Source: Bdellovibrionales bacterium (GTDB taxonomy: Bacteria > Bdellovibrionota > Bdellovibrionia > Bdellovibrionales > JAGQZY01). Taken from it: a stretch of 64,000 nt of DNA. The stretch is taken from positions 1,248,395 through 1,312,394 of the forward strand of contig CAXRHT010000002.1 in assembly GCA_964230645.1 (NCBI GenBank), read 5' to 3'. The notes beneath the pieces are model-generated. The model was not told where the DNA came from and did no database searches. It saw only the letters and a program-made list of their open reading frames with translations. The number at the start of each line of letters is the position of its first letter. The first letter of the stretch is position 1. Below, piece after piece: positions 1,587 to 64,000 of the stretch. Position numbers and translations under genes: made by a program.

Positions 1587-4166
1587 TTAGGTCTCAAACT
1601 TCAATCCTAGGTCATGGCCTAGGACTTTTATTTGACTTCCTTTTTGAATATCTCCTGCAAGAAGTTTTTTCGAAAGAACATTAACAATCTCTTTTTGAAT
1701 GACTCGCTTAAGGGGGCGAGCTCCAAAAATAGGATCATAACCTTTATCGGCTAGATACTGAACGCCGGCTTCATCGATTTCAAGAGTGATGCCTTGGTCT
1801 TTTAGGCGAGCAAGGAATCGGTCCAATTGGATTTTAACAATGCCTTCGATGTTTTCCTGGCTCAACTTTTTAAACACCACTCGTTCATCAATACGATTGA
1901 GAAACTCGGGACGGAAAAAGTCCCCAAGGTTTTCATCAATCTTTTGCTCAATGTCTTTTTCGGTAAGCTTTTCATCCATTATAAACTCAGAACCTACATT
2001 GGATGTCATGATAATGATCGTGTTTTTGAAATCAACTGTTCTCCCCTGACCATCAGTCAGACGACCTTCGTCAAAAACCTGCAACAAAACGTTGAAAACA
2101 TCGCGATGAGCTTTTTCGACCTCATCAAGTAAAACTACACTATAAGGACGCCGCCTGACCGCTTCGGTGAGCTGCCCTCCCTCATCATAGCCAACATAGC
2201 CCGGAGGCGCTCCAATCAAACGGGAGACACTGTGTTTTTCCATATACTCACTCATGTCGATACGAACGATATTTTCTTCACTATCAAACATAAACTCAGC
2301 CAAAGCCTTCACCACTTCTGTCTTTCCAACGCCTGTTGGTCCGAGAAAAAGAAAAGCTCCAATGGGTTTATTGGGGTCAGAGAGTGCCGAGCGAGATCTG
2401 CGAATGGCATCAGAAACAACCTCTAGGGCATGATCCTGTCCAATGACCCGCTGTTTGAGAAGCTCTTCCATATTAAGAAGCTTTTCTGATTCACTTTTTA
2501 TCATCTTTTCAACAGGTATTCCCGTCCATGTGGAAACCACATGGGAGATGAGTTCAGGATCAACAATCTCTCGAAGTAAGCGGTTGTCATTGTCTTCTTT
2601 TTCAACGTTGGCTTCATCAAGACTTTGCTTTTCTTTTTCTAAATTTGGAAGCTCTCCGTATTTGAGCTGTGCGGCCCTCTCTAGATCTCCTTCCCTTTCG
2701 GCTCTTTCAATTTGAGCTTTCGTTTCTTCAATTCTCTGTTTGACCTCTTTGAGCCCATCAATACTTTGACGTTCTTTTTTCCATTGGGTTTCAAGCTCAT
2801 TCAACTGCTCTTTGAGAGAACTGATTTCTGATTCAATCTTTTCCAATCTTTCTGGCTGGTCCCCTTCATTTTTGAGGGCCTTTTCCTCAATTTGCAACTG
2901 CATGATCTTTCTTTGCACCTGATCAATTTCAGCAGGAACACTTTTAATTTCCATACTGAGTTTACTAGCGGCCTCATCGACCAAATCAATGGCTTTGTCC
3001 GGAAGAAAACGATTGGCTATATAGCGATCAGAAAGTTGAGCGGCAGCTATCAGTGCGCTATCGGTGATTCTTACGCCATGATGGACTTCGTATTTTTCTT
3101 TGAGTCCTCGTAGGATCGTCACCGTGTCTTCTACGGTGGGCTCGCCCACAAAAACTGTTTGAAAACGTCTCTCTAAGGCTTTGTCTTTTTCAATATACTC
3201 GCGGTACTCATCAAGCGTGGTCGCACCAATACAACGCAACTCCCCTCGGGCAAGAGCTGGTTTGAGCAACTGGCCAGCATCCATGGCACCGTCAGTTTTG
3301 CCCGCGCCAACAAGAGTGTGAAGCTCATCGATGAATAGAATAATCTGCCCATTGCTTTTTCCCACTTCAGCAATGACTCCTTTGAGGCGCTCTTCAAACT
3401 CCCCGCGATACTTTGCTCCCGCAACAAGTGCTCCCATATCAAGGCTGAGGATTTTTTTATCGTTTAAAACCTCAGGAACATCTTTACTGATAATCCGTAA
3501 GGCCAATCCTTCGGCGATGGCTGTCTTACCCACTCCAGGCTCTCCGATGAGAACCGGATTATTTTTCTTTCTACGAGCCAGCACTTGGATGGTGCGACGA
3601 ATTTCATTGTTGCGTCCAATTACAGGATCCAAACTTCCTTGCGCGGCAAGATCGGTAAGATCCCGCGTATACTTTTCTAATACTTTGTACTGGCTGTCCG
3701 GATCTTCTGAATCAATCGTCTCGCCACCACGGATTTCACGGTAGGCTTGATCTAATTTCTTTTCATCAAGACCGGCTGTCTTATATATATTGTTTAACTC
3801 TTTATCGCCAAGCTTCAGAGAACAGATCACAAAATGCTCTACGGAAATAAATTGATCTCCAAGATCCCCTGCAAAGTTTTCAGCTAACTTGAAAAGCCTT
3901 TGTAAACGTGGACTGGCCATTAAATTATTGTCACCGGAGGTCACCTTGGGAAGTGAGGAGAGTCGATCCTTCAGAGCCTTTGCCAGAATGGTTGTTTGAA
4001 CATTGACGGCTTTAAGCATATCCATCACGCGATGAGTGGGTGTGGCAAAAATCTCCGCCAATAAATGCTCGGGCTCAACAGAAGGGTGCTTCATGGATTC
4101 GGCCGTTTTGGCCGCTTTTTGCATGGCTTGCTTTGCTGGAACTGTCATTTTTTCTATATCGTTCAT
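1587..4166 (-). CDS. clpB: ATP-dependent chaperone/disaggregase ClpB
   Basis: Two AAA+ modules (GEPGVGKT and GPTGVGKT Walker A) flank a long coiled-coil middle domain, with a Clp_N-like N-terminus. I place the start at ATG 4166 (GAGGAG just upstream, sigma-32-like promoter at 4208-4234), not at 4295. Confidence 0.95.
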
Positions 4167-24549: not shown

Positions 24550-26355
24550 GTGGGTGGTGAAAGCGGGGATCGCCAAGTGAAGAGCCATATCTTTTTCACC
24601 AAAGTTTGTAGGATTTTATTCATTCTATTTTTTCAAACCATTCTTTTTCAAGGCTGTAGTGAGCCGGAGTCATTTAGTGAACTCGCCTCCGGCCCCTCTC
24701 TGAGTGAATTTAGCAAAACTATAAGTGCTGTTGAAGGTGATAACGTCGACCTTAGTATTCCTGATGACACTATGGAAACTCTTGGCTTCAAAGAGGGAGA
24801 CGAATTAGCTGTGAAATGGATTTACATCGGGGATGACGAGGTAGAAACAGAAATTCCTCATAAGGATTTAACCCTGACATTGCCTACGGTAAAACTCACT
24901 GACTCTGGAAGTTATGCTGTCACGGTGGAGGCTGAAGACAAAACTCTTATCTTTCTTTTTAGTCTTTTCGTTCAAGAAAAAAATGTCACTCCCGAGCCTC
25001 CTCAGCCCAACCCTAGTCTTGAAACCTACGAGGGCTTTTTCATAGAAGACGGAAAAAAGAGACTTTTTATTCGCACGGAAAATATTACTAAAGAAGAGGC
25101 CTTGGCTAATTGTAAGAAAAATGCCCAGAGCAATCCTACTCGTAGTATTGTTTGCGAATGGAACGGCGATGAAATTTTTGAACGAATTGTTACTCCAAAG
25201 CCAAAAACGCCTCGCGGTGTTTATAGAGGTTACTTTCTTATCGGTGCTAAAAAGCATATGTTCATTCAAACCAAGAACATCACTAAAAACCAAGCTCTTA
25301 GCAATTGTAAAATCAATGCTAAAAACAACCCCTCAAGAAGCATTCTTTGTACTTGGAGAAACCAAGAGATCCTGAAACGAATCGTAAAGCCTAAGCCTCA
25401 ACCAGTGCGTGGTCTTTACCGAGGATTCTTTTTAAACGGCTCGAAGAGGCATATGTTCATCCAAACTAAGAACATCACTAAAAACCAGGCTCTTAGCAAT
25501 TGTAAAACTAATGCAAAGAACAATCCTGCTAAAAGCATTCTTTGTACTTGGAGAAATCAAGAGATCTTAAAACGAATCGTAAAGCCTAAGCCACAGCCTG
25601 TCCGTGGACTCTACCAGGGATTCTTTTTAAATGGCTCTAAGAGACATATGTTCATTCAAACCAAGAACATCACCAAAAACCAAGCTCTTAGCAATTGTAA
25701 AATCAATGCTAAAAACAACCCATCAAGAAGCATTCTTTGTACTTGGAGAAACCAAGAGATCCTGAAACGAATCGTAAAGCCTAAGCCTCAACCAGTGCGT
25801 GGTCTTTACCGAGGATTCTTTTTAAACGGTTCCAAGAGACATATGTTCATTCAAACCAAGAACATCACTAAAAACCAAGCTCTTAGCAATTGTAAAACTA
25901 ATGCAAAGAACAATCCTACTAAAAGCATTCTTTGTACTTGGAGAAACCAAGAGATCCTGAAACGAATCGTAAAGCCTAAACCACAACCTGTTCTTGGTCT
26001 TTACCGAGGATTCTTTTTAAACGGTTCCAAGAGACATATGTTCATTCAAACCAAGAACATCACTAAAAACCAAGCTCTTAGTAATTGTAAAACCAATGCG
26101 AAGAACAATCCTACTAAAAGCATTCTTTGCACCTGGAAGAGCCAACTAATTTTTAAGAGAGTGGTAAAAACTCCGAAGCTTGGAACTTATCGCGGTTATT
26201 TTTTAAATGGATCTTCCAAGCGTGTCTTTATTGTGACTAAAAATATTAGTCGTGAAAACGCTTTGGCAAACTGCAAGATCAATGCACGCAACAACCCGAG
26301 CAAAGGTATCATGTGCACCTTTAATGGATCCTATATTTATCGTCGCAATCCATAA
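24550..26355 (+). CDS. Lipoprotein with Ig-like N-terminal domain and seven tandem 65-aa two-Cys repeats
   Basis: Lipobox ILFQGC (a GTG at 24577 is an alternative start). LTLPTVKLTDSGSYAVTVEA is an Ig I-set-like strand motif. It is followed by repeats of YRGFFLNGSKRHMFIQTKNITKNQALSNCKTNAKNNPTKSILCTWRNQEILKRIVKPKPQPVRGL. Confidence 0.85.
   Translation: MGGESGDRQVKSHIFFTKVCRILFILFFQTILFQGCSEPESFSELASGPSLSEFSKTISAVEGDNVDLSIPDDTMETLGFKEGDELAVKWIYIGDDEVETEIPHKDLTLTLPTVKLTDSGSYAVTVEAEDKTLIFLFSLFVQEKNVTPEPPQPNPSLETYEGFFIEDGKKRLFIRTENITKEEALANCKKNAQSNPTRSIVCEWNGDEIFERIVTPKPKTPRGVYRGYFLIGAKKHMFIQTKNITKNQALSNCKINAKNNPSRSILCTWRNQEILKRIVKPKPQPVRGLYRGFFLNGSKRHMFIQTKNITKNQALSNCKTNAKNNPAKSILCTWRNQEILKRIVKPKPQPVRGLYQGFFLNGSKRHMFIQTKNITKNQALSNCKINAKNNPSRSILCTWRNQEILKRIVKPKPQPVRGLYRGFFLNGSKRHMFIQTKNITKNQALSNCKTNAKNNPTKSILCTWRNQEILKRIVKPKPQPVLGLYRGFFLNGSKRHMFIQTKNITKNQALSNCKTNAKNNPTKSILCTWKSQLIFKRVVKTPKLGTYRGYFLNGSSKRVFIVTKNISRENALANCKINARNNPSKGIMCTFNGSYIYRRNP
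25027..26352 (+). repeat. Tandem 195-bp coding repeat, 7 units (5 near-identical, 2 diverged terminal units)
   Basis: Units start at residues 160, 225, 290, 355, 420, 485 and 547. Alternate units are most alike (KINAKNNPSRS versus KTNAKNNP(A/T)KS), giving a 390-bp higher-order period. Confidence 0.9.
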
Positions 26356-39969: not shown

Positions 39970-40520
39970 ATCTTTTTTTGAGTCTCAAGATAGTGTAGCG
40001 CCTTTGAAATCGAGGCAATCATAATACTGTGATCGACATCCCCGTTTAGTAAATGCTCTTTGAGTTTATCAAGAGAGCAGAAATAGAGACTTAAATCTTC
40101 AAACTCATCGAGATTCTGTTCTTGTACTTTCTCGGAGTCAAAAGCAATAAAGGTGTGCATGCGGTTACTCTGTAGAGCAGGATTAGGGAAATGACTGCCG
40201 ATTGAGACAATATTTTTAGAATTAAACCCTGTCTCTTCGAGCATCTCTCTTCTGGCTCCCTCTAAAAAACTTTCTTGAAGGGAGGGATCCATTGAGCCTC
40301 CTGGTACTTCGAGGTGCTCCTTTTTAGAGGCATGACGGTACTGCTTCACCAAAATAGCTTCTCCGTCTTTTGTAATCGGCAGTATGTTGACCCAATCAGG
40401 GAAATCCATCACATAATAGCGTGGCATCACTCGACCGTCGGGAAGCTCGCACTTTTCAGATTTGAGTGTAAAAAGGCCTGATGAGAACAGTTTTTTTGTG
40501 GAGAGCACTTTCCAGGTCAT
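39966..40520 (-). CDS. NUDIX hydrolase (ADP-ribose pyrophosphatase-like)
   Basis: Nudix box GGSMDPSLQESFLEGARREMLEETGF. ATG 40520 has AAAGGA 5 nt upstream. 40526 is an alternative start. Confidence 0.85.
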   Translation of the reverse strand: MTWKVLSTKKLFSSGLFTLKSEKCELPDGRVMPRYYVMDFPDWVNILPITKDGEAILVKQYRHASKKEHLEVPGGSMDPSLQESFLEGARREMLEETGFNSKNIVSIGSHFPNPALQSNRMHTFIAFDSEKVQEQNLDEFEDLSLYFCSLDKLKEHLLNGDVDHSIMIASISKALHYLETQKKI

Positions 40521-40629
40521 AATCATCCTTTTTCAATTGATTAAGAAACCTCAATTTTTTACAGGAAGACTCTAATGTCAATGGATGTTTTCTAAGAATA
40601 GAGGCAATGGATTTTAATTCAATGAGTGA

Positions 40630-43600
40630 TTAGTCAAACGCAGTAACCCAAGCAAAATAAGCGTGAGTGCCCATGACCATAATTGTGTAGACCGTATGCT
40701 CACCGGCTGTGGTCGCACCGTGTCCGCTTGGTAAGTGAACTGTTAAAGATGTGGAGCCCGCATCACTATAGGCATTAAATGCACAGGTGCCGGATGTGGT
40801 TCCTTGCACTGCGAACGAATACGTTCCACCATCTTTTAAATTATGAAGATCAAAGGTTTGGCAGTTTTCACTTGTGTACTGTAAATTTCCATCATCAAAA
40901 TCGATGGTGGTCACAGCTGCACCATTAGAAATAGAGGCTGAGTTGCGAATGGCACCATTGACTTCAAGGGCGGATTGAGGACTCGCTGTACCTATTCCAA
41001 CGTTTCCAGCAAAATAGTTCGTATCGGAGGCTCCGACTTGGTAAACTCCATACTGATTGGTCCCTGACAAATCATCAATATAAAGTCCATAAGCATTTGT
41101 TAAAGTGCCGGAGTTTGAGTTTTTTGCACGAAAGCCGTAGGCATCAGTAACTGTTCCGCCGTTGACCTTGATTTCACTCAAAACACCAGTGTAGTCACCC
41201 ACTGTTCCAGCTAAATTTTCCATCTCGTTATAGCTACCTATACCCTGATTGAGACTTGTAGCCCAGTTCGAATTAATGTTGTAACTGCTAATTTGTTGGT
41301 CCTGGGCATTTGGAGAGTCACCACGGATAAGATTTCTAATTCCGATAATTTTACCTGAATGAGGATCACCATTTTTATACATCTCGTTGTTGATGTGCGC
41401 GTAGTCACCAGAGGCATCGAAGGGATTACTCTCGACACGGACCAAAGCTCCACCAAGATTTATCATATTTGCACTACCTACTAAGAAACTACCATCACTT
41501 CTTGCTGTTGCCACGGTCGAACCGTTTGCTTCTAAATTGAAATTGTAGTTATCATTTGTACCGATTGTTATTGCTGCACCATTTGAATTTCCACCATCAG
41601 CAATATCGCCAGAACCGCCACTGATTCCACTGGAGAGATCAAGACAGTTGGAGTTATTTTCATCACAAATTTCAGACGCATTGATCGACCCGGTTCCAAC
41701 ATCTAGAGCGACGGCCGGAGCTGTTGTACCAATCCCTACCCTTCCGTTTGGTGCCAAGGTGACGTAGTCCTGATAGGTACTGCCATCGAAATAATTAAAC
41801 ATTAACTTATCGGCATCAGCGCCGACGGTCGATCCGTTGCGGTAGTTAATGCTCCACTGATTTGCGTTGACCGTATTAGCCAGATTAAAATACGAATAGT
41901 TGTAGGCATCTAAAGAGCCTCCTGTTGAAGTGACCACGCCCGCGCCTGTGTCGCCATAAGCTTCCACCGCTGCCGCTGAAAAATCACCTGACACCTCTAG
42001 CATTTTACTAGGACTTCCCGTGCCAATTCCAACATTTCCAGAGGCTGTCACTCTTAATCTCTCACTACCCGCTGTGGTTAAGGCAATACTGTTGGCCACG
42101 GGGTCATGGATACCGGTATCGTTATCACCAGTAAAACTATAATCAAGATCCGCTCCGGCACCATAGCCGGCGTCAATTCTATTGAAAAAACTAAAGGAAC
42201 CCGTATTCCAACGGAGAACCTGTCCTCCGTTTAACGCAAATCCCAGATCGTCTTCCGCAAATCGAAAAAAACCCATATCCTGATCACTATTAAATGTAAG
42301 GGCAGGACTTGCTCCTGTACCATCTGCGAGTAAGAGACTATCAGTCATTGGCACCGATCCGTCAGCGAGGAAGTCTCCCCCTGAACCGCCGCCAGATGTA
42401 TCCACCCAAGTGGAGCCATCATAAAACTTCAGTTTATTAGAATCAGCACTATCAACAGCTATATCCCCTGCAGCAGGAGATCCTGGAAGAGTCGTTGGTG
42501 TAATTCGTGCGGGACCATCTACATGTAGCAGGCGTGCTGGAGCTGTTGTTCCGATTCCTACATTACCCGAGCTATCGATACGAACCCTTTCATCGTAAGC
42601 TGTGGCCCCTGTCTGCTGCCCAATAACAATGTCAGGTGTTCTTCCAGAAGAGTTTGCAATCGCTCCTATGTAAGCCTCTTGTTGGTCAGACGCCAAGTTT
42701 CTAGCTTGTAAACTTAATCCTGCCATTGCAGAGTCTAAATTGTCGGTATTTTGCACATGAGGTCCTACCATCACCGGACGATAATTACTTGATGAAGAAG
42801 GGGCATAGACTCCCCAGGTTCCTGGATAGGAAACCAACAAAGGATTTAAAACGCTTATTCCACCACTATGGGCGTACATCTGCATCGTACCAGCCGCACT
42901 TAATCCCAATGAATCTCCGAAAGGTCTAAAAATACCTGTGTCTTCATCACCTTCAAAGGCGACACCTGGAAAAGAGGCCGAACCGAAGTCAGCCTCAAGG
43001 GCACCCGTCATTGGCACACTACCATCAGCTAGGAAGTCACCAGAACCCGAACTCCACCCTGCTGAAATATCTTGGCAATTGGCTCCTGTTTCATCACAGA
43101 TTTGTTCGGCTCTTATACTACCAGCCACATCCAACAGAGAGCCTGGAGCTGTGGTTCCGATTCCAACATTACCACTATCATCGATTCTGAATCTTTCCTG
43201 ATAAGACGTGGCTCCGGTTTTTTGCCCGAGAACTATTGCCGGTGAGCTTCCAGTAGACTCTGCAACAACTCCTAAGTAGGCACTCTGATTTGTTGAACCA
43301 CTGTTGGTAACCTGAAGTGAAACCCCTCCATAGGAATTATCTAGTGAGTTTGTATTATAGAAAGTCGCTGTACCTCCATCAGGGCCATATAAACTACCAC
43401 TTGAAGGAGAGTAGGTACTTGAACTCCAAATTCCTGAAAAGAGGGGACGGAATAGCGTAATAGCGGATCCGTTAAGAGCCATCACTCCATTGCCTCCCAC
43501 GCTCAGAGCCATTTCATCAGAACCCGATCGAGTGATGCCAGTATCCTCGTCACCATCGAATGTGATACCTGGTGAAGCTGAAGTTCCGTACACAGCCTCA

Positions 43601-46600
43601 AGGGCTCCGGTCATGGGCACACTACCGTCAGCTAGGAAGTCACCAGAACCCGAACTCCACCCTGCTGAAATATCTTGGCAATTGGCTCCGGTTTCATCAC
43701 AGATTTGTTCGGCTCTTATAATCCCTGCCACATCTAACAGAGAGCCTGGAGCTGTGGTACCAATTCCGACATTTCCTGTCTGAGTAATTTCCATAATATG
43801 GTTGTTATTAGCGGCAATAGCTATGTCGGAATTCACCGACTCTAAATACAAATGGTCTCGGGCCCAAGGCACTCCGACCGCGTCGTTTCCGTAACCAACC
43901 CATCCAGCTACAGCTCCCAGTTCGTCTTGAAACTCTATTGTGTTGTAATTACTGTTTGATGTGGACTGAAGAACAACTGTGGTATCGGCGCTGACGATCT
44001 CAAGAGGCCAAGAAGGATTGTTCGTACCAATTCCCACAAAACCTGAGGAATTAATTCTCATGGCCTCAGATCCTCCAACGGAGAAACCAAGTGTATCAGC
44101 TCCGGCTCTATAAATTCCTGTGTCTTCATCACTATTAAATGTGTAACTGGGAAAACCTTCACTTGATCCAGAGTTCAATCTAAACGAGCCAGCATTGTTA
44201 TACTCGATACCTGTCTGATTAAAAGTCATACGCTGAACGCCGTTGACGCTAACACCCATATTATCAGGCGCTGCAGAAAAGAAACCAGTATTGCTGTCGT
44301 TCGCAAAAGAAATACTTGGGGCAGCCCCTGTGCCGTCACCAGCTAGTAAAGTGTCACCATCAGTGTATCCTGTACTTATACCAGCGGACAAATCGATACA
44401 GTTAGTATTGTTCTCATCACATATGGAGGCGGCATTTATTGTTCCTGTGTCGACATCTAACTCAACTCCAGGATTGAGAGTATTGATACCCACATGGCCG
44501 GTATCTTCTACAACCAATCTATGAGCATTGTTATCAATATCATAAACAGCAAACCAGTTATCGACACCATCATCCAAAACATCGATCTTAAAACCTTTTC
44601 CACTCGTTGCATTTGGAGTCAAAGCTAAGCTAGCTGTATTGTCTCCGCTTGGGCGATCTCCAATGACCACGGACTCGTTGACGGTGGGAGCCCTTTTCTC
44701 TCCACCGGCAAGAAGTTGGCCGGCAACATCTAATTTACCAGCAGGAGTTTGAGAGCCTATTCCGACTTGTCCTGTGGCATCGATTCGAACAGCTTCATTA
44801 CCACCGGTAGTAAAGGCCAATTGGTCGGCAGCACCAAGGAACATTCCTGTGTTGGCATCACTTGCAAATGAAACGGCAGGGTTTCCCTGGTTTCCATCGA
44901 TGGCATCAAATTGACCCGTCATTGCCACTGAGCCATCAGCCATAAAATCGCCAGAACCAGAACTCCAGCCCGTTGAAATATCTTGGCAATTGGCTCCAGA
45001 TTCATCACAAATTTGCTCTGCACGAATAATTCCTGCAACATCCAATTCAGAAGCTGGGCTCGTTGTACCAATTCCAACATTTCCAGTAGAACCAATCAAA
45101 GTCATCAATTCCGTGAGAGCACTGGATTGCCTAACATAAAAATGAATATCTCCTGAGGCACTATTGGCACCCCTCGTAGAAGCTAAACGGCCAGAGTCCA
45201 CACCACCACTTTCAAATAATATTCCGGAACCTCTGGAATCACCAGCGCTTGTGTTTGTAAGCTTAAGACTGTCACTGATCCCCGTAAAATTTCTGAATAT
45301 CTCAACTTTTTCATCGGGGGTTGTGGTACCTATACCAAGATTTCCGACACTATTGATACGCATTCGTTCACTACCACCATCAGTGCTGAAACTTATGGAT
45401 TCGCCGGTATCGGCATCAATATTAATTAAACTTCCATTCCAGCCGATTGCACCATAATAACCACCACCAAAATGACGGAAATTAATTCTATTAGCATTGC
45501 CTGAAGAGCCATTTCTTAGATTTAACTCAACTCCGTTGGTATCACTGGCTCCACCGTAGCCGAACATTTGAAAAACTTCGGAACCATTCATATCAAAACG
45601 AATATCATCATCATCGGGCCCTGCCTCTAACCGAATTCGTGTGTCACCATCAGTGTCTTGGAGGACTGATCCTGGAGAATTGCTACCTACTAAATCAATC
45701 CAGGCCCCACTTTCATACCCCTCAAGCTTGGAAGTAGTAGTATTATAACGAAGCATCCCGTTTTCACCGGTGCCAGGTCGCTCACCGGTTGTCCCCTGAG
45801 GAACGACAATCGCATCAGTACCTGATACATCGAGGATAGCGGCGGGATTTGTTGTCCCAATCCCCACATTGCCTGAGGTATCCACTGTAATCGCTGTTGA
45901 ACCATTGGTAAGTAGGCTCAAGTTTTGAGCGTTTGTGGTTCCAATTTCGAGATCTCCTGCAGGAGCATTTCCACCGTCAATCACGTAACCATCATCAGCT
46001 ATAATCGCTTCGACTTCTGCGTTGGAAAGAACGAAGTTTGAGCGAGTCATCTTCCTTAAAGCACCAACGGAGGCATCATAGATAAGAATTTCATCACCTG
46101 CGGCGACTGAGGCCTCGGCGGTTTCGTTAGTAATATCTACGTTGACCCCTGTTCCATCCACTGTGATCGCATCTCCACCTTGCACGGCTAGAGTGCGATC
46201 GACGGAAAGATCACCACCACCGGTTAATCCATTACCCGCTGTGATTGATCTTGAATCAGAAACTTTGTCAGCCTCTAGCTCCACAAGGGCTGCTTGTAAA
46301 GTTGTTGCAGTTAATGGTGTGGTTCCTACAGGAATCACTGTCGGATCAAAAGCACTTTCATCAAGTGTTAAGATGACATTGTCGGCATCAGAAGAAACGG
46401 CAATTTTGCCATTGGCAGAACCGACAGATTTGAATTCAAGATTTAATCCGTTCTTAGCTTTAAAAACACCTTCACCCGTTCCAACATTAGCCCCATCGTT
46501 GACTTCACCACCTGCAGCGGTTCCAAAGGCTGTCCAAGTGGAGCCATCACAAAATGAAACGGCTCCGCCTACGTATTTTAATGTTCCCTCTTTTGTACCA

Positions 46601-49600
46601 TTACAGAGAGCCGCATCGTTACCAATTTGCACCCCACCAGCAACTTGTAATTGCGAGGTGGGAGTTGTGGTTCCGATACCAACAAGACCGCTGTTTTGAA
46701 TAGTCATTCGGTTAGAGGCATTGGTACCAAAATGTAGATCTGTGTTTGCGAGATTCCAAACATAGGCGTCTCCTCCCCCAGCTACACTCGCAATACCTAA
46801 AGCTAAAGTGCCGGCATCTGACGCCGTACCTATTGTCGCTTCAGCATTAACCCCTGGATCTAAATTGATAACACCAACACCCGTGGACGCATTGTCTGAA
46901 TCAACAATCTCCAGTTTACCACTAGGATTAGAAGTTCCAATTCCCACATTTCCTGAGGAGTCGACGGTCATTACTGTCGAATTATTTGTTAAGAAAGTTA
47001 AGTCTTCGGCGTTTGTTGTACCAATATCTAACGAGCCAGTTGGTGCATTTCCACCATCGATAACATAACCGTCATCAGCAATAATCGCTTCCACTTCTGC
47101 ATTTGAAAGTACAAAGTTCGAACGAGTCATTTTTCTTAAGGCACCAGCGGAGGCATCGTAAATTAAAACTTCATCACCTGCCGCAACTGACGCTTCTGCG
47201 GTTTCGTTGGTTATATCGACATTAACGCCTGATCCGTCCACTGTGATAGCATTGCCACCAACTACTTCGATATCATCCGCATTTACATTAATACCGTTTC
47301 CAGCACCGACGGCTAAAGTTCGGTCCGTACTTAAATCGCCGCCACCAACAAGACCTCCACCAGAGACGACGGCTCTTGAGTCAGAAACTTTATCGGCTTC
47401 AAGTTCTACAAGTGCTGCCTGTAAAGTCGTTGCGGTTAACGGTGTTGTCCCTACAGGAATCACTGTTGGATCAAAAGCATTTTCATCAATTGTTAAGGTG
47501 ACATTATCAGTATCAGAGGAAACAGCTATCTTTGTATTAGCTGAGCCAATCGATTTGAATTCAAGATTCAGACCGTTTTTCGATTTAAAAACTCCCTCAC
47601 CGGTTCCAACATTGGCTCCATCATTGACCTCTCCACCAGCAGCGGTTCCAAAAGCTTCCCAGGTTGTACCATCACAAAAAGAAACAGATCCTGCGTCGTA
47701 CTTTAAAGTTCCGGCTTTTGTTCCATCGCATAGGGCTACATCATCACCAATTTGTACACCACCAGTTACCTGTAACTGAGCTGTTGGAGTTGATGTGCCG
47801 ATACCAACGTTTCCATCCTCTCGAATTATCATTCTTTGAGTGTTGGAGCCGCCACTTGCAGTTGAAAATGAAATTCGGCCATCATTATCCGGGTCAGCCC
47901 CTGTCGAAATATCTATACCGGCTATTCGAGTTCCATCATTGTTTGCTCTTAAAGAAAAAACACCCGCACCAGAAAATGTCCTGTCTGCATCTACCAGCAA
48001 TTTTACATCATTATTACCAGTGTTTGTTAAAGCTATATTCGAGCTAGTTGCACTGTATATTTGGAGTTTAGAAGTCGGTGCCGTCGTTCCAATACCGACA
48101 TTCCCATTGTCATCAACAATAAAACTGGTTGCTCCGTTATCTTGTACTTGAAAGTTATTAGTGCCAGTCAGGTTCCACACAACATCCGTGGAGTCCACTG
48201 TTATCGCAGAACCATTGTTGTAGGCATCGTCTAAACTTTGAGTTTCCGCAGTTAAGTATCCTGCGGCCGCATGATCTCCCCAAGCAAAGGCCTGATCCCA
48301 ATCTGCCGAGTTATCGGTGATACTGCTATAAGTTCCAGGTGCTGTGCGAACTAAAATACCATTTCCAGACCACACAGTATCAAGCTCAGTTCCAGTGATG
48401 TTTTGTAAAAATCCTTCATTGGAAGCGAAGGTTCCAACCTCACTTTGACTCAGTACAAAATTTGACCTTGTGATTTCTTTTAAATTCCCAGCGTCTTCAC
48501 TGTCTCTAATTAAAAGACTATCGGCAGCAACGGCAGAAGTTAATTTGTCAGCCGTTCCAGCGACATCAACATTAACACCTGTACCATCCACACTTATTCC
48601 GTTTCCAGCTCTGACTTCAATGTCGTCAGCATTCACTGTAATACCGTTGCCAGCTCCTATATCAAAAGTGCGATCAGAGCTTAGGTCACCACCACCAGTT
48701 AAACCTTGACCTGCTGTTACACTTCTTGATTCTGCAGCCACACTTGTCCAAGAGAGAACTCCGGCACCACTTGTTTGTAGCACTTGCCCTGCTCCACCGT
48801 CGTCATCCGGGAGAGTCCACACAAAGGAAGACACTGCATTTACAGTGTTCGGCGCCTGGAAACCAACGTACTTTGTTCCCGTATCCTGAAATCTTAATTC
48901 TGTAGTCACACCACCATTAAGATCCATCACCAGATTTCCGGTCATAGAGTCGCCACTTTTAGCGACCTTTTCAGCACTTAATTCTTCAATCGCTCCCTGA
49001 ACTTCTGTGGCTGTATCCACATCACCACCATAGGTGTTATCAAAAGTGATCAGGTCAGCATCGTAGTCGCCGGCTGTAGCTATAACATTGCCTGTGCGAC
49101 CGAAAACTTGAGTGACTCCCGCGTTGACATCCTGCCAGGAGAGCACTCCACTTCCATCGGTTTGTAAGTATTGTCCAGGGTCACCATCGTTATCCGGTAG
49201 AATTAAATTAACCGGTGCCGCAAGGGCTGCTGGTGATTTTAAAGAGACATAATCAGAACCGTTTCCGGTAGCCTCAGCAAGTTGTAACTCACTTTCGTTT
49301 TCTAAGTTAATATTACCAGCAGAATTAATCCCGTTGGTAACACCAATCCCACCCGAGACGGTAAGGTTGTTGCCTATACTAGCATCTTGGCCCGCACTTA
49401 AATTATTGGTGGCAGAAATATTGTTGTTAGCTGAAATATCATTCGCATTGGTGATGTCTTGATTTCCCATGTTGATGGAACCAGTCATGGTTCCACCCCC
49501 CAATGGGAGTTTATTCACATCGTTTATCACTTGCGAGTTCCACTGCGTGCCATCCCAGGTCAGGACTTCGCCATTCTGACCGGCACCAAGAGCACCGAGG

Positions 49601-50373
49601 TCCGCGGTATCGACCTGTTGTCCACCGATGTAGCTGCGAGCATAGCCGACGTTCACAGCGTCGGAATCTGTGGCTGGATTAGGATCCGCGAGATTAACTA
49701 TTTTTTGGTTGTTGTTGTCGACGTCTGCTGTTGGAGCGCCCGCTGTAAAACTCGTGCTTGTTCCATCAAGAAGAGCTTGTAGCTCGTTCCAGTTGCTATC
49801 GCTAAAGACAAACTCAAGATTTGTTTGGTCTAGATTAAATCCAGTCCCACTATTGATTCTTAGAATTTCAGGAGCACTAAGACCACCAATGGTCGAAGCA
49901 CTGGTGGCGTAGGGAACGCTGACAACATTGTGATCTTGAGCCACTGTCACAGGACCTGAACCATCATCAAAGGTCACTCGCAGTTTTCTGCCATCAGTGG
50001 AATCCGCCGTGTAGCTGGGACCCATCACACAATCCGTGGGAGTGACCGTACCGATAGCATTATCGAGAGCGTCGGAAAGGCTGGTCAGGTCTTCGTAAGA
50101 TCCATCACCAGGCTTGGAGCCCTCACCGACTATCAGACTGAAAATTCCATTAGAATTAGTCATGTTAAGAGTGTGAGATTCTTTATAAAGCACACAAAGC
50201 TCTGGCTCTGGGGAAAGAACTTCAATGGTAAATTGTACGGTGCTCGCCTCAAGGGCTTGACCGTTGGGTTTGATGATTTGACCTTGATAGGTAAATTTTG
50301 CAGGCCCTGCGAGAGCTTGAGCGGCTGCGAAAAAGGTCAAAAATAGAATCAATAAATATCTTTTAACGTGCAC
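40630..50373 (-). CDS. Giant secreted fibre protein (3247 aa) built from tail-fibre-like modules
   Basis: GTG start. Sec signal MHVKRYLLILFLTFFAAAQALA|G. 16 copies of G(N)VGIGTxxPxxxLxV, 7 copies of FxxDxDTG(I/M/F)(F/Y), 5 disulfide-loop motifs ICDExxxNCxDxS, and (G)GTMTG / GDSMTG, LTGGGDLSxDRT and ERPxxxxxGMLRYN...W motifs. G/T/S/N/D-rich. All opposite-strand ORFs are shadows. Confidence 0.9.
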   Translation of the reverse strand: MHVKRYLLILFLTFFAAAQALAGPAKFTYQGQIIKPNGQALEASTVQFTIEVLSPEPELCVLYKESHTLNMTNSNGIFSLIVGEGSKPGDGSYEDLTSLSDALDNAIGTVTPTDCVMGPSYTADSTDGRKLRVTFDDGSGPVTVAQDHNVVSVPYATSASTIGGLSAPEILRINSGTGFNLDQTNLEFVFSDSNWNELQALLDGTSTSFTAGAPTADVDNNNQKIVNLADPNPATDSDAVNVGYARSYIGGQQVDTADLGALGAGQNGEVLTWDGTQWNSQVINDVNKLPLGGGTMTGSINMGNQDITNANDISANNNISATNNLSAGQDASIGNNLTVSGGIGVTNGINSAGNINLENESELQLAEATGNGSDYVSLKSPAALAAPVNLILPDNDGDPGQYLQTDGSGVLSWQDVNAGVTQVFGRTGNVIATAGDYDADLITFDNTYGGDVDTATEVQGAIEELSAEKVAKSGDSMTGNLVMDLNGGVTTELRFQDTGTKYVGFQAPNTVNAVSSFVWTLPDDDGGAGQVLQTSGAGVLSWTSVAAESRSVTAGQGLTGGGDLSSDRTFDIGAGNGITVNADDIEVRAGNGISVDGTGVNVDVAGTADKLTSAVAADSLLIRDSEDAGNLKEITRSNFVLSQSEVGTFASNEGFLQNITGTELDTVWSGNGILVRTAPGTYSSITDNSADWDQAFAWGDHAAAGYLTAETQSLDDAYNNGSAITVDSTDVVWNLTGTNNFQVQDNGATSFIVDDNGNVGIGTTAPTSKLQIYSATSSNIALTNTGNNDVKLLVDADRTFSGAGVFSLRANNDGTRIAGIDISTGADPDNDGRISFSTASGGSNTQRMIIREDGNVGIGTSTPTAQLQVTGGVQIGDDVALCDGTKAGTLKYDAGSVSFCDGTTWEAFGTAAGGEVNDGANVGTGEGVFKSKNGLNLEFKSIGSANTKIAVSSDTDNVTLTIDENAFDPTVIPVGTTPLTATTLQAALVELEADKVSDSRAVVSGGGLVGGGDLSTDRTLAVGAGNGINVNADDIEVVGGNAITVDGSGVNVDITNETAEASVAAGDEVLIYDASAGALRKMTRSNFVLSNAEVEAIIADDGYVIDGGNAPTGSLDIGTTNAEDLTFLTNNSTVMTVDSSGNVGIGTSNPSGKLEIVDSDNASTGVGVINLDPGVNAEATIGTASDAGTLALGIASVAGGGDAYVWNLANTDLHFGTNASNRMTIQNSGLVGIGTTTPTSQLQVAGGVQIGNDAALCNGTKEGTLKYVGGAVSFCDGSTWTAFGTAAGGEVNDGANVGTGEGVFKAKNGLNLEFKSVGSANGKIAVSSDADNVILTLDESAFDPTVIPVGTTPLTATTLQAALVELEADKVSDSRSITAGNGLTGGGDLSVDRTLAVQGGDAITVDGTGVNVDITNETAEASVAAGDEILIYDASVGALRKMTRSNFVLSNAEVEAIIADDGYVIDGGNAPAGDLEIGTTNAQNLSLLTNGSTAITVDTSGNVGIGTTNPAAILDVSGTDAIVVPQGTTGERPGTGENGMLRYNTTTSKLEGYESGAWIDLVGSNSPGSVLQDTDGDTRIRLEAGPDDDDIRFDMNGSEVFQMFGYGGASDTNGVELNLRNGSSGNANRINFRHFGGGYYGAIGWNGSLINIDADTGESISFSTDGGSERMRINSVGNLGIGTTTPDEKVEIFRNFTGISDSLKLTNTSAGDSRGSGILFESGGVDSGRLASTRGANSASGDIHFYVRQSSALTELMTLIGSTGNVGIGTTSPASELDVAGIIRAEQICDESGANCQDISTGWSSGSGDFMADGSVAMTGQFDAIDGNQGNPAVSFASDANTGMFLGAADQLAFTTGGNEAVRIDATGQVGIGSQTPAGKLDVAGQLLAGGEKRAPTVNESVVIGDRPSGDNTASLALTPNATSGKGFKIDVLDDGVDNWFAVYDIDNNAHRLVVEDTGHVGINTLNPGVELDVDTGTINAASICDENNTNCIDLSAGISTGYTDGDTLLAGDGTGAAPSISFANDSNTGFFSAAPDNMGVSVNGVQRMTFNQTGIEYNNAGSFRLNSGSSEGFPSYTFNSDEDTGIYRAGADTLGFSVGGSEAMRINSSGFVGIGTNNPSWPLEIVSADTTVVLQSTSNSNYNTIEFQDELGAVAGWVGYGNDAVGVPWARDHLYLESVNSDIAIAANNNHIMEITQTGNVGIGTTAPGSLLDVAGIIRAEQICDETGANCQDISAGWSSGSGDFLADGSVPMTGALEAVYGTSASPGITFDGDEDTGITRSGSDEMALSVGGNGVMALNGSAITLFRPLFSGIWSSSTYSPSSGSLYGPDGGTATFYNTNSLDNSYGGVSLQVTNSGSTNQSAYLGVVAESTGSSPAIVLGQKTGATSYQERFRIDDSGNVGIGTTAPGSLLDVAGSIRAEQICDETGANCQDISAGWSSGSGDFLADGSVPMTGALEADFGSASFPGVAFEGDEDTGIFRPFGDSLGLSAAGTMQMYAHSGGISVLNPLLVSYPGTWGVYAPSSSSNYRPVMVGPHVQNTDNLDSAMAGLSLQARNLASDQQEAYIGAIANSSGRTPDIVIGQQTGATAYDERVRIDSSGNVGIGTTAPARLLHVDGPARITPTTLPGSPAAGDIAVDSADSNKLKFYDGSTWVDTSGGGSGGDFLADGSVPMTDSLLLADGTGASPALTFNSDQDMGFFRFAEDDLGFALNGGQVLRWNTGSFSFFNRIDAGYGAGADLDYSFTGDNDTGIHDPVANSIALTTAGSERLRVTASGNVGIGTGSPSKMLEVSGDFSAAAVEAYGDTGAGVVTSTGGSLDAYNYSYFNLANTVNANQWSINYRNGSTVGADADKLMFNYFDGSTYQDYVTLAPNGRVGIGTTAPAVALDVGTGSINASEICDENNSNCLDLSSGISGGSGDIADGGNSNGAAITIGTNDNYNFNLEANGSTVATARSDGSFLVGSANMINLGGALVRVESNPFDASGDYAHINNEMYKNGDPHSGKIIGIRNLIRGDSPNAQDQQISSYNINSNWATSLNQGIGSYNEMENLAGTVGDYTGVLSEIKVNGGTVTDAYGFRAKNSNSGTLTNAYGLYIDDLSGTNQYGVYQVGASDTNYFAGNVGIGTASPQSALEVNGAIRNSASISNGAAVTTIDFDDGNLQYTSENCQTFDLHNLKDGGTYSFAVQGTTSGTCAFNAYSDAGSTSLTVHLPSGHGATTAGEHTVYTIMVMGTHAYFAWVTAFD
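42991..43776 (-). repeat. Two adjacent 603-bp (201-aa) units whose first 183 bp are near-identical
   Basis: 42991-43173 versus 43594-43776: 13 mismatches by hand count and 60/61 aa identical (GNVGIGTTAPGSLLDVAG(I/S)IRAEQICDETGANCQDISAGWSSGSGDFLADGSVPMTGALEA). The remaining ~140 aa of each unit are far more diverged. Confidence 0.85.
44908..45084 (-). repeat. Third, more diverged copy of the 183-bp cassette
   Basis: Residues 1764-1824: GNVGIGTTSPASELDVAGIIRAEQICDESGANCQDISTGWSSGSGDFMADGSVAMTGQFDA. Confidence 0.8.
45844..47814 (-). repeat. Large internal duplication (period 1125 bp / 375 aa)
   Basis: Residues 854-1150 versus 1229-1510 are collinear. Protein is mostly identical apart from a 15-aa indel, while the DNA carries many synonymous differences. 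A partial third copy lies at 48436-48723 (res 551-646). Confidence 0.85.
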
Positions 50374-50379
50374 AAATAG

Positions 50380-50406
50380 TTATCGGACTAAGTGCTTAAG
50401 AGTTTA
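50380..50406 (-). promoter_or_regulatory. Sigma-28 (FliA)-type promoter of the giant fibre gene
   Basis: Minus strand reads TAAA-N15-TCCGATAA (equivalently TAAACTCT-N11-TCCGATAA). It is followed by CTATTT and then the GTG start codon. Confidence 0.5.
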
Positions 50407-50670
50407 GGATTTTTGTGCATTTACTCGATAATTTATAGGAATTTTTGTGCTTTTTTGTCTCTCCATGAGCCGGAGTCTCAATACTTTCCGCTAGCTGTCT
50501 TTTTATGATACAGACTTTTCAAGGCTGTCAGAAAATAGACAAGCTTAGTAAAATTCTGAAGAGCTGAGGTCGAGGTATATATAGACTAAAGTTAGCTCCC
50601 CCTACATTTGATTCCAGTAGTGAGACAATTCTTGTTTGCTAATCACTGTAATAAATAATAGAAAAAGTCC

Positions 50671-61149: not shown

Positions 61150-61176
61150 TTCACTTTTCTCTTATATTGCCGATAA
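61150..61176 (+). promoter_or_regulatory. Sigma-28-type promoter of the second fibre gene
   Basis: TTCACTTT-N11-GCCGATAA, where the -10 is a perfect match to the consensus I recall. It is followed by GTATAT and then GTG 61183. Confidence 0.45.
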
Positions 61177-61182
61177 GTATAT

Positions 61183-64000
61183 GTGCACGTTAGTAGAGGA
61201 TTTTTTTTATTTTTAGGGCTTTTATTATCAGCCTCATTTTCTTTCGCCGCCCCGGCGAAGTTTACCTATCAAGGTCAAATCATCAAACCCAATGGTCAAC
61301 CTCTTGAAGACAGTAATGTGGCCTTCAGAATAGAAATTGTTTCTCCAGGGCCTGAAGCTTGTATTCTCTATGAAGAAACTCATACCTTGAATATGTCAGC
61401 TTCAAACGGAATTTTTAGTGTCACAGTGGGTGAGGGCGCTCGCCCCGGTGACGGAAGTTTTGAAGACCTCACAACTCTTCGCGACGCTCTTGATAATTCC
61501 ACAGGACTTGTTTCTCCCACCGATTGCACAGGGGGGCCTAATTACACCCCTGCGATCGATGATGGCAGAAAATTGAGAGTCACTTTTAACGATGGATCCG
61601 GACCTGTGACTCTGACTCAAGATCACAACGTGGTCAGTGTACCTTTTGCTAGCAGTGCTCACAGTGTGAGTGGGCTCACGGCAACGGACTTATTAACTAT
61701 TCGTGATGATGCCAGTTTTCAATTAAACCAAGCCAATCTGGAAACTGTTTTTTCAAATGCCAACTGGGCGGAACTCCAAGCCCTTCTTGATGGTTCGAGC
61801 AGCAGTTTTGTGCAACCAGCCCCCACGGGGGATGTGGACAATAATAACCAAAAAATCGTCAACCTGGCAGACCCTGATCCAAATGAAGGAAAGGATGCTG
61901 TTAATGTCGATTACGCCAATAGCTACATCGGTGGACAGGCAGTGGACACAGCTGACCTCAGCACTTTGGCCGTTGGGAATGCTGACGAAGTTTTAACCTG
62001 GAACGGAACCCAGTGGACTTCAACCAGTATTCCCGAGGACACGACAAAACTCAACAAAGCCGGTGACACCATGAGTGGCACGCTTAATATGGGCAATAAT
62101 GACATCACCAATATTAACAATCTCTCTGTTAACTCCACCATCTCTGTGACTGGAGGAATTGGAGTGGGCACAGGGATTAATTCCGGTGGGACCATTAATT
62201 TACAAAATGAAAACGCACTTCAGTTTTCTGAAAACTCTGGTAACGGCACTAACTTCGTTTCTTTAAAAGCTCCCAATGCACTCGCTAGCGATTTGAGCTG
62301 GACACTTCCGAGCACTCAAGGCACTCCAGGGCAGATGCTACAAGCCGGAACAGGCGGAACTCTATCCTGGGCAGATCCTAGTGCCATCGGCTATCTTCAA
62401 GATGGTGGTAATAGCACTGGAGCTTCCATTCGTGTGGGAACGAACGATTCACAGTCTCTTGAACTTGAAACTAACAACACTGCGCGAATGACTTTAGACA
62501 GCACAGGTGATGTGGGAATCGGTACGACAAATCCATGGGAACGACTGACCGTTGTAGGTGGAGGAATATCCGTTCAAGATACTATAAATGGAGGGACTGC
62601 GACGGCTTTGTCTCTCAATAACCCCCACGCAGGATTTGGTGGTCCAAGAGTTGGTATGGATTTTAGCTTGGGCACAGGAAGCGTGACCTATTCAAGAATT
62701 TCATCGGGAGCCGAAGCCTCTAACCGTGGGTCTCTTCGCTTTTTTACTCGAGGTACTACACCTTCTATTGGTATTTATGAAAGAATGACTATTAACGAGG
62801 ATGGAAATGTTGGAATCGGTACGTCCGATCCTTCAGAGCGTCTTGAGGTGAACGGTACTATACGTAGCCAGGACTTGGTAGTTCAGGGGACAACTGGTTC
62901 TGCCCATAGTGTTTATATTTCTAATGCTTCCAACGGAATATACTTGGGAGTTGACGGCTATGAAAATGGGACGATAAATGTAGAAAGATCCAACTCCGAC
63001 CTTCGATTCCAAATTGCCGGTTCAGATCAAATGAGAATTCTTGATTCAGGAAATGTAGGTATTGGGACATCAAACCCCTCCACTAAATTAGAGGTAAACG
63101 GGACCCTCACGGCTTCGGCTTATGTCGGAAATGGGTCGGGACTCACAAACGTCACTTCAACAAGCTCTACCTCCTCTACTAATACTAGTAACTATATTAT
63201 TAATTCGGACTCCGACAACACTGGTGCTGATGGAGGAGTGAGTTTTCAAACCAACGGCTCAACCGTCGCTTCCGTAAGTGCCTCAGGTCAGCTTAATGGA
63301 AACTCTGGTTCTGTGGGCTCTGTTGGCATCGGATTTCAAGGAGACTCTGATACCGGGCTCTACTCCCCTATTGTGGATACGGTTTCACTATCCGCTGGTG
63401 GCATTGAGGGGTTGAGAATCAACAATACTCCCAGTGGTGTGAACTATGTTGAACTTTATCCTGGGGCCACTGGAGCTGGACCAACTATCGCTTCGGCTGG
63501 AAGTGATACTAATATTGATATCAATTTTACTCCCAAAGGGTCTGGACATAGTATTTTTACATCAGGACGGGTTGGCCTCGGCGTCTCTAACCCCTCTGAA
63601 CGCCTTGATGTGCAAGGAAACATTAATTTATCAGGTCGTATTTTTGGTGGAGAAACGGATTCGTACCTCGATATCCACGGTGGCGGAGGGCGAATCATAG
63701 GTAACAATAGAACAGTGATTAGTGGCTCAAAAGGCTCACAGCTTAACATTAGTGTAGGCGATGAACTAGAAGCGGGGTCGGGTCGCATTCGAATGAAACT
63801 CGACACTGGCTTTCGTGATGACACGCCCGACGCCACTGTTGAAATTAGTGCGGATGGTTCGACGACCGGAAGTGCTTTTATGGTGAGTTCCGATGATAAT
63901 AATGATGGAGATCTTGTTAATATCTTAAAGAATGGCGATGTCGGCATTGGAACCTCGAGTCCTTCTTCAAAATTTGAGGTGGTTGGAACTGTTACCGCTT
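61183..64000 (+). CDS. Second giant fibre protein, 5' partial (open to window end, at least 939 codons)
   Basis: Not in the ORF track because no stop is reached. My hand translation of the 5' ~440 codons (61183 to about 62500) and of the last ~23 codons, both in frame 1, found no stop; the ORF track lists no competing frame-1 ORF in between. Starts GTGCACGTT: MHVSRGFFLFLGLLLSASFSFA|APAKFTYQGQIIKPNGQPLE..., collinear with the first ~410 aa of 40630..50373. It then reads DGGNSTGASIRVGTND...GDVGIGTTNP, and the last visible motif is GDVGIGTSSPSSKFEVVG. Confidence 0.85.
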   Translation, partial: MHVSRGFFLFLGLLLSASFSFAAPAKFTYQGQIIKPNGQPLEDSNVAFRIEIVSPGPEACILYEETHTLNMSASNGIFSVTVGEGARPGDGSFEDLTTLRDALDNSTGLVSPTDCTGGPNYTPAIDDGRKLRVTFNDGSGPVTLTQDHNVVSVPFASSAHSVSGLTATDLLTIRDDASFQLNQANLETVFSNANWAELQALLDGSSSSFVQPAPTGDVDNNNQKIVNLADPDPNEGKDAVNVDYANSYIGGQAVDTADLSTLAVGNADEVLTWNGTQWTSTSIPEDTTKLNKAGDTMSGTLNMGNNDITNINNLSVNSTISVTGGIGVGTGINSGGTINLQNENALQFSENSGNGTNFVSLKAPNALASDLSWTLPSTQGTPGQMLQAGTGGTLSWADPSAIGYLQDGGNSTGASIRVGTNDSQSLELETNNTARMTLDSTGDVGIGTTNPWERLTVVGGGISVQDTINGGTATALSLNNPHAGFGGPRVGMDFSLGTGSVTYSRISSGAEASNRGSLRFFTRGTTPSIGIYERMTINEDGNVGIGTSDPSERLEVNGTIRSQDLVVQGTTGSAHSVYISNASNGIYLGVDGYENGTINVERSNSDLRFQIAGSDQMRILDSGNVGIGTSNPSTKLEVNGTLTASAYVGNGSGLTNVTSTSSTSSTNTSNYIINSDSDNTGADGGVSFQTNGSTVASVSASGQLNGNSGSVGSVGIGFQGDSDTGLYSPIVDTVSLSAGGIEGLRINNTPSGVNYVELYPGATGAGPTIASAGSDTNIDINFTPKGSGHSIFTSGRVGLGVSNPSERLDVQGNINLSGRIFGGETDSYLDIHGGGGRIIGNNRTVISGSKGSQLNISVGDELEAGSGRIRMKLDTGFRDDTPDATVEISADGSTTGSAFMVSSDDNNDGDLVNILKNGDVGIGTSSPSSKFEVVGTVTA

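Follow-up and report, generated by a model that had tools for sequence, protein, structure and literature searches.

In a 64,000-nucleotide stretch of the genome of a Bdellovibrionales bacterium (hereafter the window; contig CAXRHT010000002.1, positions 1,248,395 to 1,312,394), a single minus-strand gene encodes a 3,247-residue protein (hereafter the giant) that is probably a non-S74 (NS74) member of the mosaic adhesive trimer (MAT) family of Bdellovibrio-like predators, working by the mechanism set out below. It extends the MAT discovery of 2024 as an extreme but not unique case and is no new kind of system. Its open reading frame (ORF) runs from a GTG at 50373 to 40630 and comprises 3,247 codons plus a stop (40630-40632) with no interruption, and the same frame carries a TAA three codons before the GTG. 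We consider the start well placed because paralogues and homologues of the giant open with the same residues, 'MHV'. The N-terminus, MHVKRYLLILFLTFFAAAQALA|GPAKF, reads directly as a classical Sec signal, with n-, h- and c-regions and an A-x-A site, here A-L-A. These findings confirm the uninterrupted 3,247-codon frame and the AxA-type Sec signal given in a preliminary description of this DNA. All 18 cysteines of the giant fall into nine local pairs, as would be expected for an extracytoplasmic, disulfide-stapled protein. The G+C content across the gene (window 40001-50000) is 0.44-0.48 versus 0.39-0.44 in flanking DNA, which is consistent with a Gly/Ala-rich product (G 13.7%, A 10%) rather than with recent transfer.

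Both the N-terminal end and the stalk of the giant point to the MAT family. NCBIfam model NF053851 ('Bdello_MAT_N: mosaic adhesive trimer family chimeric fiber protein') matched aa 11-168 with an E-value of 5e-38 and 130.4 bits (cutoff 60). In the study that established this family, Caulton et al. (2024, Nat Microbiol; PMC10769870) described 21 members in B. bacteriovorus HD100, 626-1,959 aa long (the longest being Bd0726), all having a conserved ~130-aa beta-rich domain directly after the signal peptide and ending either in an S74 chaperone/protease (13 proteins) or in other adhesive tips (the 8 NS74 proteins). A Pfam scan of the giant found no domain at E<=1, including no S74, YadA anchor or trimeric autotransporter adhesin (TAA) domain, and the S74 cleavage motif (SDxxxK or SDxRxKK) does not occur in it, so we class it as an NS74-type MAT; an S74-type end is present in relatives P0066, P0079 and P0057.

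MATs are trimeric intertwined beta-helices with modules bounded by capping loops of the form V-G-G/N-pi-x-x-P-x-x-x-L (PMC10769870), and the commonest motif of the giant, GNVGIGTxxPxxxL, is this published capping loop (compare NVGIGATSPSAKLQ of Bd0884). When 15 of the giant's own 'GNVGIGTxxPxxxL' modules were aligned to build a profile (A3), a search of the PDB with it retrieved the crystallised MATs Bd2133 (8OND; E 7e-28, in three stretches), Bd1334 (8OML; 1.5e-18), Bd3182 (8OJN; 1.6e-14) and Bd2439 (8OL4; 2.4e-8). The only further match was MyRF (0.019), which is also the only non-MAT protein in which the MAT study found the capping-loop motif (PMC10769870). A PDB sequence search with the whole giant likewise returned MAT crystal structures, together with one weak match, 8ON5 'Adenoviral fiber protein' (E 0.0037). 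The kinship with the chimeric trimeric fibre adhesins of Bdellovibrio suggested in the preliminary description is thus borne out by the NF053851 match and by homology to crystallised MAT modules.

The protein is built from recurring motifs, and every motif family listed in that description was recovered in the stated number. We counted 16 capping motifs (G-x-[VL]-G-I-[GN]), seven copies of FxxDx[DN][TM]G, five two-Cys loops (ICDE..NC.D.S), three copies of GGGDLSxDRT, one GGTMTG, one GDSMTG, three V[PA]MTG, and one ERP..GMLRYN with three degenerate variants of the same hairpin. Because 1,000 residue shuffles gave mean counts of just 0.09, 0.08, 0 and 0 for the capping, FxxDxDTG, Cys-loop and GGGDLSxDRT motifs respectively, this repetition, far above the shuffle means, is not due to composition. 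The layout of the gene, with its upstream element and the second MAT gene of the window, is as follows.

50380..50407, minus strand: sigma-28 (FliA)-type promoter-like element, CTAAA-N16-CCGATAA, ending 6 nt before the GTG (read from the sequence).
50308..50373, minus strand: aa 1-22, Sec signal peptide, MHVKRYLLILFLTFFAAAQALA|G (read directly from the sequence).
49870..50307, minus strand: aa 23-168, MAT N-terminal beta-rich domain, presumed cell-surface anchoring/presentation end (NF053851 match).
48736..49869, minus strand: aa 169-546, conserved neck and proximal stalk with GGTMTG/GDSMTG fibre repeats (homologue alignment, internal repeat).
45772..48735, minus strand: aa 547-1534, middle stalk with three GGGDLSxDRT modules and a ~375-aa tandem duplication (motif and repeat analysis).
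41584..45771, minus strand: aa 1535-2930, distal stalk of recurring supermodules (alignment A4, motif and repeat analysis).
41008..41583, minus strand: aa 2931-3122, pre-tip segment with YG-rich repeats, AYGFRAK...NAYGLYIDD...QYGVYQ (sequence).
40954..41007, minus strand: aa 3123-3140, last (16th) capping loop, GNVGIGTASPQSALEVNG, directly before the tip (motif count).
40633..40953, minus strand: aa 3141-3247, C-terminal tip domain, presumed ligand-binding end (alignment A1, AF2, Foldseek).
61183..64000, plus strand: second MAT-family gene, divergently oriented, at least 939 aa visible from its GTG at 61183 and running off the window end (phmmer).

Homologues align with the giant through aa ~300, and the neck and proximal stalk contain an internal repeat (aa 306-418 resembles aa 445-547). 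In the middle stalk, the two copies of the ~375-aa duplication (about aa 785-1159 and 1160-1534) share 75-87% amino acid identity and contain capping loops and Cys-stapled 'GTLKY...CDGTTW' hairpins. In the distal stalk, aa 2200-2400 and 2401-2602 form a tandem pair of 201-aa units. Alignment of six supermodules (A4) revealed a regular order: a capping loop, then a Cys loop ICDExxxNCxDxS or a RYN-type hairpin, then GDF(L/M)ADGSVPMTG, FxxDxDTG and a variable beta segment leading to the next capping loop. Cys loops (aa 1789-1796, 1985-1992, 2225-2232, 2426-2433 and 2903-2910) and RYN-type hairpins (aa 882-900, 1257-1275 and 2636-2656) take equivalent positions after a capping loop, and in the S74-type relatives P0066 and P0079 a comparable loop with two cysteines follows the final capping loop and precedes the site of S74 cleavage. 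This hints that the Cys-loop/hairpin junctions of the giant and the two-Cys loop of the S74 relatives may share an origin.

Alignment A1 brings together 38 homologues of the C-terminal tip at 29-61% identity, in which a pair of cysteines (C3171 and C3197) is conserved. In the AF2 model, aa ~3148-3247 were predicted as an eight-stranded all-beta domain with pLDDT >90, preceded by part of the pre-tip segment at low confidence (residues 1-50 of the model). Foldseek with this model gave a sole significant match in the PDB, the phage Pa223 capsid spike (E 1.6e-4), followed by phage tailspikes that included CBA120 TSP4 as a weak match (E 0.33), and no MAT crystal structure in the match list. Against viral predicted structures it yielded 178 matches at E<=1e-3, nearly all to tail-fibre or uncharacterised Caudovirales proteins and among them 'phage tail fibre C-terminal domain' and Mtd-type proteins, from which we conclude that the tip has the type of fold found in phage receptor-binding tips. 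By analogy with Bd2439 and phage fibres, the most likely ligand would be a prey-surface glycan.

By genome label, the tip is almost restricted to Bdellovibrionota: 36 of the 38 tip loci are labelled Bdellovibrionota, Bdellovibrionia, Bdellovibrionales, Pseudobdellovibrionaceae, Bdellovibrio, Bacteriovoracaceae or Oligoflexia. The other two (L034 8273-9079 from Limnohabitans sp. MAG20, and L007 from Proteobacteria bacterium BJ13) may be due to contaminated bins, wrong labels or horizontal transfer. We also observed that the use of the tip extends beyond anchored fibres: three short proteins (P0016, P0017 and P0019; 213-240 aa) lack the MAT N-domain and combine a hydrophobic signal-like N-terminus with a 'FKYCDGTxW' hairpin stapled by cysteines, a single capping loop and this tip.

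To place the giant among its relatives, we scanned 1.84 billion cluster representatives with its residues 1-200 using HMMER (E<=1e-3) and obtained 2,344 representative clusters; the length, capping-loop and tip statistics below refer to the best 150 of these N-domain relatives. Their median length is 846 aa and 14 of them reach at least 2,000 aa, the giant being the longest and a 3,238-aa S74-type relative the next. The giant also has the most capping loops among the 150 (16, against a median of 2). Its tip occurs on 19 of the 150, always C-terminal, in proteins of 444-3,247 aa. At the lower end stand 'mini' MATs such as P0006 (447 aa), which consists of the N-domain, one stalk module and the tip, and likewise P0068 (444 aa), so that the same N-domain and tip ends span a roughly seven-fold range of total length between the mini MATs and the giant. 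Beyond it, a tip-bearing ORF in a Pseudobdellovibrionaceae metagenome-assembled genome (L004 2-10372, CAZPOV010000012.1) extends over 3,456 codons and reaches the border of the retrieved locus without closing. Because its first residues equal those of P0050 from about residue 310, the full protein would probably be about 3,770 aa long and exceed the giant.

Among N-domain relatives that bear a name, the nearest belongs to a 'Bdellovibrionales bacterium'. Other giant MATs from uncultured Bdellovibrionota, namely P0074 (2,836 aa), P0050 (2,712), P0049 (2,232), P0055 (2,185) and the L004 ORF (at least 3,456), resemble the giant in their N-domain family and tip (48-69% identical) and share module types with it, whereas the order and number of their stalk modules differ. 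In P0055, the stalk has coiled-coil-like 'TxLDxRVT' repeats where the giant has capping-loop modules. Several relatives also have the Cys loop and the GDFLADGS and FxxDxDTG elements, and the giant's module grammar is thus common to an uncharacterised, mostly metagenomic branch of MATs.

Two claims of the preliminary description, that the protein is far longer than the Bdellovibrio fibres and that its module grammar is different, hold in part. Compared with HD100, where the longest MAT is the 1,959-aa Bd0726, the giant is 1.66 times longer, but in the wider family its length is nearly reached by the 3,238-aa relative and exceeded by the ORF of at least 3,456 codons, and 14 of the best 150 relatives have at least 2,000 aa. 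Similarly, its main motif is the published MAT capping loop; the Cys-loop/GDFLADGS/FxxDxDTG supermodules are indeed an addition relative to the stalks of HD100 MATs, yet they recur in other uncultured Bdellovibrionota MATs. The closest HD100 proteins, all in the NS74 subgroup, are Bd0726 by size and Bd2133 and Bd1334 by module homology. Like HD100 MATs, the giant has a signal peptide and N-domain, capping-loop beta-helix modules and apparently several paralogues in one genome; like their NS74 subgroup it has an independently folding beta-rich tip in place of S74, and like the HD100 'cell-surface anchors' it has a probable FliA attack-phase promoter. In Foldseek its tip matched none of those on the six crystallised MATs, which end in S74, two novel beta-sandwiches (Bd2133, Bd1334), two TNF-like folds or a C-type lectin. 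The tips of Bd0726 and Bd2872 are uncrystallised; CBA120 TSP4, the weak match above, has been cited as resembling that of Bd0726.

The putative promoter abuts the gene. In B. bacteriovorus, attack-phase FliA promoters follow the consensus TTAAG-N16-CCGATA and serve 'cell-surface anchors' as well as other genes (PMC3627812). The element upstream of the giant, CTAAA-N16-CCGATAA, matches this consensus and closely precedes its GTG, before which no Shine-Dalgarno sequence is visible. The second MAT gene of the window has the same arrangement (gCCGATAA-N6-GTG, with the box at 61170-61176 on the plus strand), and a CCGATA[AG] box lies 7-9 nt before the predicted starts of MAT genes in five other Bdellovibrionota genomes (loci L011, L017, L025, L032 and L035). 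CCGATAA is enriched in the window as a whole, with 17 occurrences versus 5.95 +/- 2.6 expected. From these sequences we infer that the giant would be expressed in attack phase in a sigma-28-dependent manner and, since the -10 box sits so close to the start codon, with no Shine-Dalgarno sequence to be seen, that its mRNA may be leaderless or near-leaderless.

We propose the following course of events. Transcription would start from the FliA/sigma-28-type attack-phase promoter abutting the start codon, and the pre-protein would be exported by Sec with removal of the 22-residue signal peptide. Three chains would then assemble into an intertwined beta-helical fibre, as the homology to crystallised trimeric MAT modules suggests, and the conserved N-terminal domain would hold this fibre on the predator surface, a role put forward for the whole family by Caulton et al. 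(2024; PMC10769870). The stalk, made of 16 capping-loop-delimited beta-helix modules with disulfide-stapled loops and hairpins and apparently built by tandem duplication, would project the tip away from the cell, where the independently folding C-terminal beta-sandwich would bind an epitope on the prey surface, probably a glycan. Published dimensions of MATs (~550 Å for ~780 mature residues of Bd3182, and ~142-150 Å for the 370 residues of a Bd2133 tip fragment; PMC10769870) correspond to the 0.4-0.7 Å per residue that we used for scaling, and for a mature chain of ~3,225 residues the fibre length is estimated at roughly 0.13-0.23 µm.

Several points weigh against this account. Trimer formation, surface display and prey binding are attributed to the giant by way of its family, surface display, trimeric fibres by electron microscopy and crystallography, and glycan binding by Bd2439 having been reported for HD100 members (PMC10769870). 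The Foldseek TM-scores of the tip are moderate (0.45-0.6), partly because ~55 disordered residues were included. An AF2 monomer of one 225-aa stalk supermodule was all-beta and of low confidence (pLDDT 49, pTM 0.26); it is not the confident monomeric globular fold that the preliminary description had named as speaking against a fibre, and such a model would be expected for an intertwined trimer modelled as a single chain, so that it neither supports nor refutes a trimer. A difficulty for the whole MAT family is that so large a fibre would have to cross the outer membrane. Finally, single MAT deletions in HD100 are mostly without phenotype (PMC10769870).

The last point also bears on the possibility that the giant is a MAT fibre with a job other than first-contact prey recognition, such as holding the predator-derived vesicle, sealing the entry porthole, attaching to surfaces or biofilms, or mediating predator-predator contact. 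Such a role would agree with the mostly missing predation defect of the single deletions and with the varied sites at which MATs have been reported (vesicle, bdelloplast, flagellar pole and mid-cell; PMC10769870), and structure searches of the giant's tip gave no ligand that would tell against it. We nevertheless regard it as unlikely, as the extreme length and the phage receptor-binding type of tip suit long-range capture and the sigma-28 attack-phase-type promoter places expression before prey entry, although both are arguments from design.

That the length is inflated by mis-assembled repeats, or that the gene is decaying, might be suspected from its highly repetitive nature and from its apparent origin in a metagenome or a poorly sampled lineage; among PurH relatives, identity falls from 97% for the closest to 81% for the next and to 72% or less thereafter. 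The repeats themselves make this very unlikely. The two copies of the tandem duplication of 1,125 nt (375 aa) are 76-81% identical in DNA and those of the duplication of 603 nt (201 aa) 86%, and divergence of this degree shows them to be old and distinguishable, so that repeat collapse or mis-assembly is unlikely; overall, DNA differences of 14-31% between repeat copies make them easy to tell apart in assembly. Moreover, the frame is open for 9.7 kb, database records place the identical sequence on three contigs of up to 2.33 Mb, and both ends of the giant, N-domain and tip, are intact and conserved.

Even less credible is a tail fibre of a phage or tailocin left behind by a prophage, in spite of kinship with phage proteins. 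PHROG tail-fibre families match the giant in many copies with E-values down to 1e-61, tblastn found related modules in 156 phage genomes, annotated as tail fibre or chaperone of endosialidase, and the fold of the tip resembles viral fibre tips, all of which agrees with the tail-fibre-type motifs noted in the preliminary description. Identity to phage proteins is, however, only 26-35% and extends over at most a third of the giant, and neither its tip nor its N-domain was found in scans of the IMG/VR viral contigs, while the Sec signal peptide and the Bdellovibrio-specific MAT N-domain speak for a cellular protein. No phage structural, terminase, packaging, integrase or lysis gene is present among the annotated genes of the window, in line with the earlier view of a cellular fibre, which holds for these annotated parts. 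Those neighbours comprise ClpB, MgtE, UDP-glucose dehydrogenase, NuoCD/F/G (Nuo operon), subtilase and PilZ genes, as well as a response regulator, NUDIX, TP-methylase, PurH, MlaDEF and alanine racemase; the surroundings of the giant gene are ordinary chromosomal housekeeping genes and not a prophage. With no phage gene cluster among the annotated genes around it, the prophage reading is largely refuted. The giant shares with S74-type phage fibres (the T5 pb1 L-shaped fibre and the K1F endosialidase) and with MyRF the capping-loop motif of intertwined trimeric beta-helices, and its modules show low-identity homology to cyanophage and pelagiphage tail fibres; unlike the S74-type phage fibres, it has no S74 intramolecular chaperone, has a Sec signal, stands in a chromosomal non-phage context and is several times longer.

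A giant adhesin of another class, a YadA-like trimeric autotransporter or an RTX adhesin of a type I secretion system, is suggested by size, repetitiveness and one viral Foldseek match of the tip annotated 'YadA-like head' (rank 12), but can be given next to no credence and is refuted by the domain scans, given the lack of a YadA anchor, of RTX repeats and of any other Pfam domain at E<=1, the different architecture of a Sec signal followed by a MAT N-domain, and a C-terminus that is a soluble beta-sandwich tip and not a beta-barrel anchor. TAAs such as YadA and BadA also form long trimeric fibres on the surface, repetitive in sequence and adhesive at one end, and work similarly, although with reversed polarity, the giant having an N-terminal anchor and a C-terminal tip.

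The divergently oriented gene at 61183 (+), missed in the preliminary description, encodes a signal peptide, several capping loops and an N-domain ~65% identical to that of the giant (phmmer E 1.7e-79). A third paralogue, P0049, apparently from the same genome, is 47% identical over residues 7-1246 and has a tip of the same family (48% identical). The genome thus appears to have three MAT paralogues, of which at least two would be giants whose tips are related. Comparison of 12 neighbouring proteins with the 38 tip-bearing loci revealed no conserved neighbourhood. An Rfam scan of the window found no RNA families. Elsewhere in the window, a 601-aa ORF at 24550-26355 (+) has no NCBIfam match at E<=1e-10, its sole Pfam match being a short one to PF18543 'Intracellular delivery domain' (E 2.9e-8, 34.4 bits, cutoff 31.4).

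Between the same N-domain and tip, stalks vary in length from some 330 residues to over 3,300 (in proteins of 444/447 to 3,247 and at least 3,456 aa), and at least two fibre lengths with the same type of anchor and tip apparently occur in the giant's genome. We tentatively raise the idea, which we think possible though more probably wrong, that one anchor and one binding tip on stalks of graded length form a 'reach' series, with MAT genes expressed from leaderless or near-leaderless sigma-28 mRNAs. If so, a single specificity would be presented over a span that begins a few tens of nm from the cell and ends near 0.2 µm, which might serve a staged capture in which long fibres make contact first and short ones pull the prey in, like long and short phage tail fibres, or alternatively the penetration of capsules differing in thickness; tandem module duplication would then be the evolutionary means of setting length.

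Whatever the use made of its reach, the giant shows how far the modular design of MATs can stretch, its estimated length being a substantial fraction of the predator's own width, and it bears a conserved, structurally uncharacterised and Bdellovibrionota-restricted tip that recurs on fibres differing greatly in length. This tip (aa ~3100-3247) is small and models confidently, which should make it an easy target for crystallography and glycan arrays. MAT fibres are the current best candidates for broad prey recognition by Bdellovibrio-like predators, and their study bears on the use of these bacteria as 'living antibiotics'.

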